This document shows positions 13,308 through 17,810 of a stretch of DNA of 64,000 nt, one piece after another. The number at the start of each line of letters is the position of its first letter. Position 1 is the first letter of the stretch. The notes below the pieces were generated by a model. The model was not told where the DNA came from. It worked only from the letters and a program-made list of their open reading frames with translations, and made no database searches. Position numbers and translations under genes: made by a program. This stretch comes from a virus (lineage: Duplodnaviria > Heunggongvirae > Uroviricota > Caudoviricetes). The stretch is from IMG/VR virus record IMGVR_UViG_3300001528_000174, positions 64,001 to 128,000 of that record, one strand, 5' to 3'.

Positions 13308-16300
13308 ATGTTAGTTGCGAATTTTACTACACAAGTCCCAACTATGGGTAATACTAGAACATATGAAGATTTTTATAAGTTCTTAGGAGTAAAACCTGCT
13401 CGTTTGGGAATTGTTGCAAATCTCTATCCTTAGAATACCGCTGAATATTTAACTACTTCTCTTAAGAACGTTATTTATAATAACACTAAGAGTGGTAACA
13501 AGTTCCAACGTTTGAACTCGTTAATGTATGAATATGAGATTCAAACTAATCAAATTAAACGTATCGAGTTTGCCGCAGTGCCTGTTGAAGATGGTGCTAA
13601 TGGTACAGAAATTACTTTTGCTTTCAAAGAAAATTACTATCAGAAGTATGACATCTTTATGATTGAAGGTTCTAGACAGCAAGTTATTTGTGTAACTAGA
13701 CCTCAGCGTAGAGCGGATAGCCCACATAAATTGTCCGCTTAAAATTCTTTAAATTGCTTAAAATTCTACATCGCAACTTAGAATAACAAGCAGCGAGGAT
13801 GTGATGACATCAACGTTCATCGACTAGGCGAAAGCCGTAGATTTATTTTTAAATCGAAAAATTGAATTATTATGAGTAAACATATAGTATATTTAACGAC
13901 TAATTTGAAATCCAAAATTAATGGTATAAACAGAATTTATATTGGAGTACATAAAACTGAAAATCCTGATATTTTTGACGGATATATAGGTTGTGGAGTA
14001 AAAATAAATGTACCAAGTTCTTACAGAAATCCTGAAACTCCTTTTCAATATGCTGTTAAGAAATATGGGACAGAAGCCTTTAAGAGAAACACTTTATACG
14101 TATATGACACAGCTAAGGAAGCTTATAACAAAGAACGTGAATTAGTGGACGCTAAATTTATCGCTCAAGACTATACCTATAATGTAGTTTTAGGAGGTGA
14201 ATTTGAAGATCATTATAGACCTCTATATCAATTTGCTTTAGATGGTACTCTTATAAAGTGTTGGGAACGATCTAGTGAAGCTTACGAGTTTTACGGAGTC
14301 CCTAAAGAACGATTTGATAGCTCTAAAAGAAATAAATGTATATTTTTAAACTCTTATTGGTCTACTTCTCCAAAAATAGATGTAACAGAATATTCTAAAA
14401 CACCTATAACTAAAATAACTTATTTATATAGCAAGGGAGGTAAACTCTTAAAAGAATTTGATTCCCAAACTAAATGTGCAGAATACATTGATTACGACAA
14501 AGGAGAGTTAACTAGGGCTATTAAAGAGCAAAGACTTATAAAGAAACAATATTATGTTTCTAATTCTTTAACTGATGAATTTAAACCTTCACCTAGAAAA
14601 AATTATATGAATATGCACTTTTTTGTATATACAGTAAATAATGAGTATATAGGAGAATATGTAGGTAAAGAGTTAATGGGCGTAATAAAATTAAAGTCTT
14701 GGGCGAATATAAATCATATATTTACACATAACAAAAATTGGTATAAAGATTTTTATGTTTCTTTAGAAAAAATAGAAAAAGTTCCTACAAAGAGAATTGG
14801 AAATGGTATATGTGTGGATGTATACACAAATTTTGGAGAATTTATAGAAACATGTAAATCTATAAAAGAAGTTAAAGAAAAATATAATATACCTGCCTTT
14901 AAAATAAAAAATATTCAATATGGAGACAGATATTATAATAACTATATATTTAAATACAATAATAAATGATATAGTCAAAATAAATATTTGAATTATTGGG
15001 AAATACAGGGACGTTTAATTGATGACGATTATAGTTCAGTGCTTGATAAGGATGCTTGTCAAATTGGTATGTTGACAAGATTTTAGAGTAACTCCATACA
15101 TCGCAACTGGTGTGGCAATATTAAGAAATTAATATTTGAAAAATATTTTAATTGCTAGAACCTCCTTAACTGTGCATAATTAAGGGCAATTAGCAGCAAA
15201 GATATAATTAGATTTAATAGTATATAAAGGATAATTCCCTAATATTAAGATTTTTATATAATGTTCAACGAGTATCCGCAAGGAGTAAAATTATGAAATA
15301 TATAGTATACAAAACTACAAATAAAATTAATAACTATATTTATATAGGAGTACATAAAACAGTAAATCCTAATGTTTTTGATAACTATTTAGGCTGTGGC
15401 TGTTACGCTGATTAGCCTAGTACTTATAATAAAGCTAAAACTAAATTCCAACAAGCAGTACAACAGTATGGTCCAAAAAATTTTCATAGAGAAATAATAG
15501 CTACTTATGATAATGAAGATGAGGCTTATTTACTTGAAGAGCAATTAGTAAATGAGGATTTTTTACAGAGGGATGATGTTTATAATATGGTACTTGGGGG
15601 AGTAAATACAGACTTTAATGGTATCTTAGTATTCCGCTATACTTTAGACGGTGTTTATGACAAATCTTATAAAAGTTATGAAGATGCTGCTAGAGATTTA
15701 CAAGTGTAGGCTTCCTCTGTAAGACGTTCAGCTATATTTAAAGTAAAATTAAAAAATTACTATTTTAATACTGATAAAGTAGATAAAATAGATATATCTT
15801 TATATAGTCATGTAAATTCAAAGAAAATAGTATATCGCTATCTTAAAACTGGAGAATTTGATAAAACTTACCAATCTCAAGCAGATGCTGCGGAAGATTT
15901 TAATATAGCAGCTGCTACTGTATTAAGAGCTATACAGATGGGAGTACTAGTAAAGAATACCTATTATTATTCTACAGTTAAGTGTAACTCTTATGATAGA
16001 GCTAGAACTCTATATATAAAAACCAGAAAAGTATATAAATATTCTAGTGATGGAGAATTTATAGCTGAATATGAGACCTAGCAAGAGGCTGAAAAAAACA
16101 ATCCATATAGTAATATAACTAAAGCTATTAGACTTAAATCTGTTGATGAAAATGGATTTATATGGGGATTAGTAAAATTAAAGAATTATAATAAAAAAGC
16201 TAATCGTGCTAAAAGAGTTGCCAAACTAAATAGTGATGGTAACATATTACAAGTATGGAAGTCTGGTAGCGCTTGTTGTAAAGAAGTAGGAAATTCTGTA

Positions 16301-17810
16301 CAAAATGTACTTTCTGGTAAAGGAAAGACTCATAAAGGATTTGTATATAAATATATAGATTAATTTGAAATGAATATTATCCTTAATTATAATATAAGAC
16401 AAGGATAGTGATGTATTCTAACCTATATAGTAATATATAGTAGAGAAATAGAGGCCTGAGATGCATGAAGAGGGAAATGGAAACATTTTAACGTATTATT
16501 AGAGCAATATCTCTCTTACAATCTTTTGGTAGTAGTAAAATTCATAATAAATGCCTTTAATTGCTGGAAAACCTTAAAAGGCAATCAGCAGCGAAGTCTT
16601 AATTTTTAAGAAACGTTCATCGACTAGTCTATTATGACGTAGGGATAATTATTATCTCGAAATGAGGCAAATCTAATTATTAGATTAAGATATAGTCAGC
16701 CTTTATATGAAAATATAAAGAAATACGTATTGCAAATACCAGAGTAATATTTCACGTTTCCGTGGTTATATTACCCAGTTCCGTAATGATGAAACATATT
16801 CAGCTTTATATGCTGCTATGGAAGACACCTTTGTAAATATTTCACAAGGCAAAGGCAACGGAGCTATGCAAGAGACCGTTTATAGAATGGACAAGAAGGA
16901 GAAAGTATTACTTGAAAACTTCATGTTCGTTAAGAACAACGGTCTGTTATTTAACAAGAGTTCCATTGATAAGAATGGAAAATCTACAATTTCTGATCCG
17001 GACACTGGACGTCCGATATATATTGGTCCAGGTTTGATTCCACAAATTGAAGCTTATGCTGATAAGTATGCTTATAATAAGATGACAGTAGATGTTCTTA
17101 ACACTATTGTTACTACTATGGCACAAAAAGCTAATAATCCTAAAGGAAACAAATGGTTATTCGTTATGAATGAAAAGGCTGATGCCGATATTACTACAAC
17201 TTTAGGAGAATATTTGCAGAGCTTCCATACAGATGGAACATTCTTATATTCTATGAAGGCTAATGGAGAAGTAGAGGTAGGAGCTAAAGGTTATACTTCT
17301 TACAACTATTTAGGTAATACATTAGTCTTTACTGTCGATAGAGCTTTCTCTCGCGAATATGGTAATGAGAAGGGCTTTATTGCTTGTATTGATTTAAGCC
17401 CAGATGATTCTACTGGAAAACCAGGTGTTGCACAGTTTACTTTCAAGAATGGCGAGTTCATTCAGAATAAAGTACTTGGCGTAGGTGGTGCCGACGGTTT
17501 ATCATCTGGAGAAGTTTCTAGTGCTATTGCAGCTAGTAAACTTATTGTATGGGGATAAAATTTTAGCCATGTTCCCTTAAAATTCCTTTAATTGCTGGAA
17601 GGTTCTTATGGAATAATCAGCAGCCAAGATTTCTTATGAAATAAGGTTCAACGACTATCTCGAAAGAGAGTAGGAATTAATATTCCGAAATGGGGAATAG
17701 CTTATTAAGCTAAAGATATAGTCTACCCACATTACGATGTGAAATCCAATTTAGATGGCGGAATTGGAGTATTCAATCCTTACAAATCCTTCATTGCACG
17801 TGAAGTGTAA
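13308..17810 (+). CDS. Major capsid protein, spliced from 5 exons (474 aa)
   Basis: Exons 13308-13718, 14991-15097, 16454-16475, 16728-17556 and 17755-17810 total 1425 nt in frame; junctions restore crAss MCP-type text RRAD|NYWE, QSNSM|PEMHEEG|YCKYQSN, IVWG|YGGIGVFNPY. Confidence 0.88.
13719..14990 (+). mobile_element. Group I intron 1 of MCP (IA/phage type), HEG in P8 loop
   Basis: P1 agcggaU/Guccgcu; core aattgc..cagc..cgacta..gatatagtc; terminal G at 14990. Confidence 0.88.
13872..14969 (+). CDS. Intron-encoded GIY-YIG (Seg-like) homing endonuclease with NUMOD1-like repeats
   Basis: HIVYLTTN..IYIGVHKT..DGYIGCG; repeats such as YQFALDGTLIKCW and YSKGGKLLKEFDS; TGA stop overlaps the intron S element. 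Confidence 0.85.
   Translation: MSKHIVYLTTNLKSKINGINRIYIGVHKTENPDIFDGYIGCGVKINVPSSYRNPETPFQYAVKKYGTEAFKRNTLYVYDTAKEAYNKERELVDAKFIAQDYTYNVVLGGEFEDHYRPLYQFALDGTLIKCWERSSEAYEFYGVPKERFDSSKRNKCIFLNSYWSTSPKIDVTEYSKTPITKITYLYSKGGKLLKEFDSQTKCAEYIDYDKGELTRAIKEQRLIKKQYYVSNSLTDEFKPSPRKNYMNMHFFVYTVNNEYIGEYVGKELMGVIKLKSWANINHIFTHNKNWYKDFYVSLEKIEKVPTKRIGNGICVDVYTNFGEFIETCKSIKEVKEKYNIPAFKIKNIQYGDRYYNNYIFKYNNK
15098..16453 (+). mobile_element. Group I intron 2 of MCP, HEG in P7.2 region
   Basis: P1 ccaU/Gugg; core aattgct..agcagc..cgagta..gatgtattc; P9 ctatatag-taa-tatatag; terminal G at 16453. Confidence 0.85.
15293..16363 (+). CDS. Intron-encoded GIY-YIG homing endonuclease, 356 aa (code 15)
   Basis: MKYIVYKTTN..IYIGVHKT..FDNYLGCG; NUMOD1-like repeats; three in-frame TAG; ends TAA. 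Confidence 0.85.
16476..16727 (+). mobile_element. Group I intron 3 of MCP (ORF-less, 252 nt)
   Basis: Core atgcctttaattgctggaa..aatcagcagc..cgacta..gaggca..gatatagtc; terminal G at 16727; IGS 16504-16517 pairs with both exons. Confidence 0.82.
17557..17754 (+). mobile_element. Group I intron 4 of MCP (ORF-less, 198 nt)
   Basis: P1 ggggaU/Guuccc; P10 gccat/atggc; core aattgctggaa..aatcagcagc..cgacta..gatatagtc; terminal G at 17754. Confidence 0.88.

Follow-up and report, generated by a model that had tools for sequence, protein, structure and literature searches.

The capsid (MCP) gene of a gut crAss-like phage was found to harbor a group I intron, 252 nt long and without a homing-endonuclease ORF (16476..16727), that has an A-U pair at its 5' splice site, at the very position where the homologous introns of related phages have U·G. 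[quoted passage not shown] Judging from homology, covariation and the essential nature of the host gene, we estimate the probability at roughly 0.6 that the intron still splices at the homologous phosphate by using this Watson-Crick A-U pair, perhaps less efficiently.

The capsid gene and its exon junction

The window, i.e. the whole 64-kb stretch of DNA that was analyzed, comprises bases 64001-128000 of a source virus record of 180.5 kb, which is rated 100% complete, and all features described here are situated on its plus strand. Only one MCP gene was found in this complete genome, and the intron at 16476-16727 must therefore be removed for capsids to be made. In total, four introns interrupt the gene in the window (13719-14990, 15098-16453, 16476-16727 and 17557-17754). 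A splice model joining 13308-13718, 14991-15097, 16454-16475, 16728-17556 and 17755-17810 gives 1428 nt in frame, and the resulting protein of 474 aa is identical at 465 positions (98%) to that of an intron-less allele (locus L001, see below), with no indel. The assignment to the crAss-like MCPs (Pfam PF23898, Crass_capsid) comes from exon 4 (16728..17556), which matched 228 proteins at E <= 1e-30, most of them with PF23898. Exon 3 is a mini-exon of 22 nt (16454..16475; G CCT GAG ATG CAT GAA GAG GGA), which completes ...M-PEMHEEG and has group I introns on both sides. Its last 8 nt (16468-16475) make up the 5' strand of P1, and the first 6 nt of exon 4, UAUUGC (16728-16733), form P10.

In-frame TAG codons occur at three places in an ORF inside intron 2 (ORF 15293-16363; TAG at 15413, 15707 and 16079) and at one place in the MCP itself (13431). 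Since TAG is read through in frame in both, it is a sense codon in this phage, and such recoding has been described for many crAss-like phages (PMC7886860). The intron-2 ORF gave sub-threshold Pfam matches only (SegE GIY-YIG and I-HmuI NUMOD-like), the other two intron ORFs gave no Pfam match, and the endonuclease ORF of the neighboring intron was not found on record. Intron 15098-16453 splits a Met codon (AT/G) and is absent in the closest relatives (L058 type), where exons 2 and 3 are fused. The number of introns also varies among near-identical MCP alleles, as those of L001-L010, L058-L067 and the window carry 0, 3 or 4 of them.

By employing megablast against GenBank phages, one relative was found, namely MT835492 (locus L001), with an intron-less MCP allele of ~90% nucleotide identity. 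This locus matches the window in four pieces, with gaps between the pieces in the window only, and mini-exon 3 fills the 22-nt gap (L001 2027-2048) between blastn pieces of the intron-less allele. The L001 protein reads ...TRFqSNSMPEMHEEGYCKYQSNISRFRGY..., and nine IMG/VR relatives (L002-L010, 98% protein identity) have the same reading, with GAAGAAGGT/TACTGC, where the slash marks the junction. At the nucleotide level, the intron-less alleles L001-L010 read ...MPEMHEEGYCKYQSNISRFRGY... at this point. As they read HEEG/YCKYQSN without any indel, the junction is fixed as GGA/TAT, after A16475 and after G16727. In the window, the exon text ...atgcatgaagaggga ends at A16475, with the tail aagaggga at 16468-16475; the intron 3' end reads ...aaatacg/tattgcaaataccag, with G16727 before the slash, and exon 4 opens with tattgc at 16728-16733. 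A preliminary description of this DNA, made from the letters alone, had placed the cut after A16475 and derived HEEG/YCKYQSN from it. The intron-less alleles contain exactly this ligated sequence, and the alignment to them that had been proposed as a check came out with GGA/TAT and no indel at the junction.

A junction slid one base to the left (exon ...GGG plus G/UAUUGC) was considered and rejected; it leads to the same protein, but needs a G-C pair at -1 and an intron ending in C. Searches for the ligated-junction pattern, with 0-3 extra bases allowed, gave no match in viral or metagenome contigs, both of which are DNA assemblies, so that this result has little bearing on splicing.

Guide pairing and catalytic core

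The internal guide sequence, gcaatatctctctt (16504..16517), is composed of a P10 guide (16504-16509) and a P1 guide (16510-16517). The latter, UCUCUCUU, pairs with the exon end AAGAGGGA (16468-16475) with a single G·U, G16473·U16512, and the P10 guide, GCAAUA, pairs with UAUUGC (16728-16733). Because the P1 and P10 helices are contiguous, the guide can pair with the ligated exons over all 14 nt, and when the first 85 intron nucleotides were shuffled 20,000 times, such 14/14 pairing was reached once (about 5e-5). The preliminary description had pointed to this guide, its position and its complementarity to aagaggga/tattgc, with 8 bp of P1 including one G-U and 6 bp of P10, all of which was borne out. 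The cleavage-site pair is A16475-U16510, where U16510 takes the place of the conserved G of the relatives. The last exon nucleotide (-1), A16475, is the third base of the Gly-180 codon (GGA vs GGU) and is a U in all homologous introns. Judging by the alignment, the A-U pair is thus a change on both strands in comparison to the U·G of the relatives, and it is found in the window only.

The other MCP introns (13719-14990, 15098-16453 and 17557-17754) all have a U at -1 opposite a guide G, i.e. G13733, G15112 and G17571, respectively. The earlier statement that the normal U-G pair is present in every other intron thereby stands, but the number given there, four, has to be lowered to three for the MCP gene.

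When every guide G in 16476-16550 was tried for pairing with a U-ending exon, none was found to fit. A 5' site shifted to after U16478, which would yield HEEGN-YCKYQSN with one extra Asn, has the advantages of a U kept at -1 and a product in frame. It appears very unlikely, however, as U16478 faces A16507 rather than a G, and no guide exists for GGGAAAU, nor any of the 'GUUU' type for U16478 in the 5' part of the intron. That U16478 has no G partner had already been noted, and A16507 is at best what it pairs with. Moreover, P10 abuts U16510, so that the end positioned for ligation is A16475, and the extra residue occurs in no homolog, with or without an intron.

A hairpin may form in the P1 loop (16494..16509), where UAUU (16494-16497) repeats the start of the 3' exon and is complementary to AAUA (16506-16509) in the P10 guide. 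This predicted pairing resembles a P1 extension that is displaced by P10, and counterparts are seen in the relatives, namely UAUUGG with UUAAUA (L058), AUGU with ACAU (L021) and CACAA with UUGUG (L014).

Two Rfam group I matches were obtained in the 64-kb window, at 16507-16719 (RF00028, 70 bits vs the gathering score of 50, E = 1e-15, model positions 1-253) and at 17533-17743 (77 bits), and the two endonuclease-bearing introns went undetected at the E-value threshold. Further hallmarks of the family were found in the sequence at 16476-16727. The terminal (omega) G, G16727, directly precedes exon 4 according to the intron-less alleles, the guide pairs with the exons at all 14 positions of P1 and P10 and covaries with them among the relatives, and AAGAUAUAGUC and GUUCAUCGACUA match the consensus for the P7 strand and J8/7. 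The U·G splice pair, a hallmark of function that does not enter into the homology definition of the family, is the one that is missing, with A16475-U16510 at the aligned position. Group I membership is kept despite this, because of the model score and the orthology to canonical introns at the same site.

The minimum free energy (MFE) fold of the precursor (16454-16745) forms P1, P3, P4, P5, P6, P7.1, P7.2, P8 and P9 unaided, and RNAalifold, applied to 12 same-site introns, found compensatory changes in 30 out of 54 pairs. Based on the Rfam alignment and these two folds, the catalytic core spans 16552..16697 and is intact. It includes P3 (16552-57 with 16664-69), P4 (16561-67 with 16585-91), P5 (16572-74 with 16579-81), P6 (about 16592-16616) and P7 (16622-26 with 16693-97), together with J8/7 (16687-92, AAGAUA). 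Two extra hairpins, P7.1 (16627-38, GUC-UAUUAU-GAC) and P7.2 (16642-58, GGGAUAA-UUA-UUAUCUC), lie between P7 and P3' in both the MFE and the alignment folds, and an intron bearing these presumably belongs to the phage-type subgroup, IA2-like. P8 (16670-86, AAUCUAAU-UA-UUAGAUU) has a very small loop, where most relatives have an endonuclease ORF. This ORF fills the P8 loop of the relatives, with its stop codon in the 3' strand/J8/7 (gatTAAgatatagtc; L014 2930-2950, L058 4360-4380), and at 16670-16692 of the window the flanks are as in the ORF-bearing relatives, with the ORF cleanly absent. The P9 hairpin (16701..16720) reads CUUUAUAU-GAAA-AUAUAAAG, and G16720 is paired with C16701 in it.

The J1/2 and P2 region (16518..16551) is where the 'P1' of the Rfam model was aligned (16511-16537). 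The relatives have a P2 hairpin of 7-8 bp directly behind the guide; its seven covarying pairs (alignment columns 61-67 with 75-81) are unpaired in the window, and no stable alternative appears in the fold. In J4/5, J5/4 and J8/7, the alignment has no window-specific change and no obvious adaptation of the wobble receptor.

The Rfam P1 is misaligned in both matches. In the first it is put on the guide/P2 region, the true 5' splice site being situated 32 nt upstream of the match, and in the second (17533-17556) it falls in exon 4, the true site being after U17556, in a split Tyr codon (U/AU), with G17754 as the last intron nucleotide. If the alignment of the first match were taken at face value, P1 would consist of 16511-16519 with 16529-16537, including U16516·G16532, the cut would come after U16516, G16720 would be last, and the in-frame product would be 16 residues longer (NGNILTYYqSNISLNT). 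Apart from the cmscan alignment, which places the model P1 there, this register has in its favor a frame that is open if TAG is Q, and an inserted peptide that resembles the start of exon 4 (TY-YQSNIS vs TYCKYQSNIS). We nevertheless consider it barely conceivable. Of the 9 pairs in its helix, 3 are mismatched, the posterior values are low, AAAUAC is left without a P10, and G16720 is paired inside P9. In addition, 16510-16517 corresponds in the alignment to the covarying guide found in all relatives, the same frame has a TAA in the sister intron (described below), no MCP homolog has such an insert, and the Rfam P1 is misplaced for intron 17557-17754 too.

When read in the exon frame with TAG as Q, the 5' part of the intron (16490-16517, compared with 16725-16754) gives TY-YqSNIS, and its differences from the exon-4 TYCKYQSNIS are all synonymous. 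The ACGUAUU in this stretch mimics the 3' exon and is predicted to pair with the P10 guide, and as the sister intron has a TAA in this frame, the rest of the likeness may be due to chance. Real coding by an in-frame second copy of YQSNIS was rejected on account of the TAA in the sister intron and of the likeness coming partly from the 3'-exon mimic.

Homologous introns at the same site

Such introns were sought through a core-pattern scan of IMG/VR, tblastn with the intron-less MCP and look-ups of split MCP proteins. Homologous introns at the Gly180/Tyr181 boundary were identified in ~35 related loci, distributed over seven P1 sequence types. The look-ups of ~294-aa split MCPs contributed a new P1 type only from L070, and several of the contigs were short and without the 5' end of the intron. 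By its P7.1 and P7.2 hairpins and its alignment with these sequences, the window intron is of the phage type and orthologous to the Gly180/Tyr181 introns of related crAss-like MCP genes. The 180/181 residue boundary is an intron-insertion hot spot across MCPs that are merely 45-60% identical.

All seven P1 types have exon GGU/, with the U at -1 opposite a guide G. The exon ends and guides are, respectively, GAGGAGGGU and G-CUCUCCUC in L012/14/16/32, GAAGAGGGU and G-CUCUCUUC in L021/23/25/37, GAAGAAGGU and G-CUUUCUUC in L044-L051, GAGAAGGGU and G-CUCUUCUC in L035, GAGGAAGGU and G-CUUUCCUC in L058-L067, GAAGAAGGU and G-CCCUCUUC in L070, and GACUGUGGU and G-CCUCAGU in L034/38. The suggestion that A-U stands in place of U-G, initially made without any relatives at hand, thus agrees with the orthologous same-site introns, which have U·G at exactly that position. 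The P1 guides of the relatives track synonymous differences in the Glu codons, and the P10 guides change together with the 3' exons (ACACAAA is matched by UUUGUGU, AUGUAAA by UUUACAU, and UAUUGC by UUAAUA or GCAAUA). The window guide aligns base for base with all of these guides, with U16510 for G and A16475 for the exon U. Shared between the window intron and the others are also the insertion point, the core, P1 with its G·U at -3, a guide matched to the exon sequence, and TAG recoding in the host. They differ in that the same-site introns all have exon U·guide G, and a clear P2 is present in most of them, as is an endonuclease ORF of ~240 aa in the P8 loop, whereas the window intron has A-U at the site and neither the endonuclease ORF nor a clear P2.

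Exact matches to the 246-aa ORF of the window's exon 4 are recorded for 23 contigs from many samples. In all of the ten contigs listed among these (L058-L067), the same position is occupied by what is here called the sister intron, whose P8 loop contains a 240-aa ORF. Its U·G 5' end could be read in nine out of the ten, as L066 ends short of the 5' exon. The sister and window introns have in common the 3' end AAAUACG, the P1-loop motif AACGUAUU and the AAUA of the P10 guide. They also share an insertion of 8-9 nt at the 5' end of the intron (L058 3422-3429, UUGGAAGU; window 16476-16484). The L058 copy is similar to the exon end (GGAAGGU), and its final GU coincides exactly with the splice site of the other same-site introns. 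The insertion has the appearance of a pseudo-5' splice site, or of what is left of a small duplication.

Between the window and the sister type, identity is 68% in the intron and 94% in exon 4, and the intron therefore represents an old lineage in which the structure has been kept. In P1, the two differ at -7 (G-C in the L058 type, A-U in the window), at -4 (A-U and G-C, respectively) and at -1 (U·G and A-U, respectively), and compensated differences are found in P3, P7.2 and P9 too. We read the two sequences as probable old lineages of one intron, both under selection for pairing, with the A-U pair having arisen in the lineage of the window.

No further copy of the window variant was found by exact guide and P6 patterns in viral contigs, nor by the guide pattern in metagenome contigs. 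With a single metagenome-assembled contig and no second copy for comparison, a sequencing or assembly artefact has to be considered, in which the true bases would be T at 16475 and G at 16510. This seems extremely unlikely, as it needs two independent errors 35 nt apart, both of them transversions and complementary by chance, and as the adjoining positions also differ coherently from the relatives.

What counts against continued splicing is that the variant was found once, that the P2 of the relatives is missing, and that J4/5 and J8/7 contain no compensating change. The intron could accordingly be impaired or dead, with the A-U pair being deleterious or transient and the phage either making little capsid protein or surviving only beside its common relatives, in which this site has a canonical intron or none. 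Besides the singleton status and the lost P2, the absence of an endonuclease ORF would fit the decay phase of a homing cycle, and strong first-step defects are known from U·G mutants in the literature (PMC1891724, PMC12355055, PMC2241849). Two transversions that restore pairing are, on the other hand, not expected from decay. The P1 (-7, -4) and P10 guides match the exons of their own allele, the core helices are all intact, and the complete 180-kb genome has one MCP gene with all exons in frame. All in all, we hold impairment to be unlikely, and if the intron does not splice, the capsid gene would have been caught while being disabled by its own intron. Since the genome is apparently complete and the A-U pair is located in its single capsid gene, selection on splicing should be strong.

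Proposed splicing and comparison with known systems

If splicing continues at A16475, as we prefer to think, P1 would be made up of the guide at 16510-16517 and the final 8 nt of the mini-exon and would dock in the core, and an external guanosine would attack the A16475-A16476 bond, i.e. the phosphate homologous to the one cut in the relatives. The P10 guide (16504-16509) would pair with the UAUUGC of exon 4, G16727 would enter the G site, and the 3'-OH of A16475 would join U16728, with HEEG/YCKYQSN as the product. The predicted ligated RNA is ...GAAGAGGGA/UAUUGC..., with the junction ...CAUGAAGAGGGA/UAUUGCAAAUAC. Possible aids are the long continuous helix of P1 and P10, and the location of the A-U as a terminal pair beside an A×A mismatch, where it would be able to breathe. 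We infer both cleavage and ligation at A16475 and a tolerance of the lost wobble pair, which may come at a cost in rate. To the narrower proposition, that the nucleotide after which the ribozyme cleaves is a purine engaged in a Watson-Crick A-U pair, we would give even odds.

Provided that the intron still splices, it would be a rare natural exception to a U·G rule that has long been treated as essential. Base pairing at -1, and not wobble geometry, could then suffice in the window ribozyme, which would offer a natural starting point for measuring the contribution of the wobble receptor and for testing how essential this contact is. The rule of U-ending targets for engineered group I ribozymes would be relaxed, and, if cleavage does occur after the purine of an A-U pair, trans-splicing or circular-RNA ribozymes free of the U limit might be built on the intron. 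The comparison set is also unusually clean, as intron-less alleles give the junction and the seven covarying same-site types all keep U·G.

The presence of an intron in a crAss-like MCP gene is as such already known, since Yutin et al. 2021 (PMC7886860) described group I introns in the MCP genes of crAss-like phages from the Delta/Zeta group. The U·G pair has been characterized as critical and highly conserved (PMC4227781, PMC8395846). In Tetrahymena, C-G in place of U·G increased P1 undocking about 80-fold (PMC1891724), and in an Anabaena system the product was abolished when T-G was swapped to G-T (PMC12355055), while activity is retained with a c-A wobble (PMC11417360). In a limited literature search, we came across no report of a natural A-U at the 5' splice-site pair.

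Distant blastn searches gave core matches only, to unrelated phage introns (the SPBc2 bnrdF region and other Bacillus, Staphylococcus and Pseudomonas phages). Among the phage introns with P7.1/P7.2, those of T4 td and Bacillus phage SPβ bnrdF, which we take to be of subgroup IA2, have the hairpins and the location in an essential phage gene in common with the window intron, but there the U·G is canonical. The nearest natural precedent found is that of the group B IStrons (BcISt1), in which splicing takes place after a G (Tourasse et al. 2014, PMC4227781). These keep a U·G that is shifted by one position, with the U as the first intron base, beside an internal loop (PMC4227781), whereas in the window intron there is no U·G at or beside the site and the pair itself is A-U. 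Lastly, the same position has been tested with laboratory-made 5' splice-pair mutants of the Tetrahymena, Anabaena and Azoarcus ribozymes (PMC1891724, PMC11417360, PMC12355055, PMC2241849). Among such engineered mutants, the c-A wobble works fairly well, and activity is poor or absent with Watson-Crick pairs or a swapped G-U; compared to these, the window intron would be a natural case, in an essential gene.
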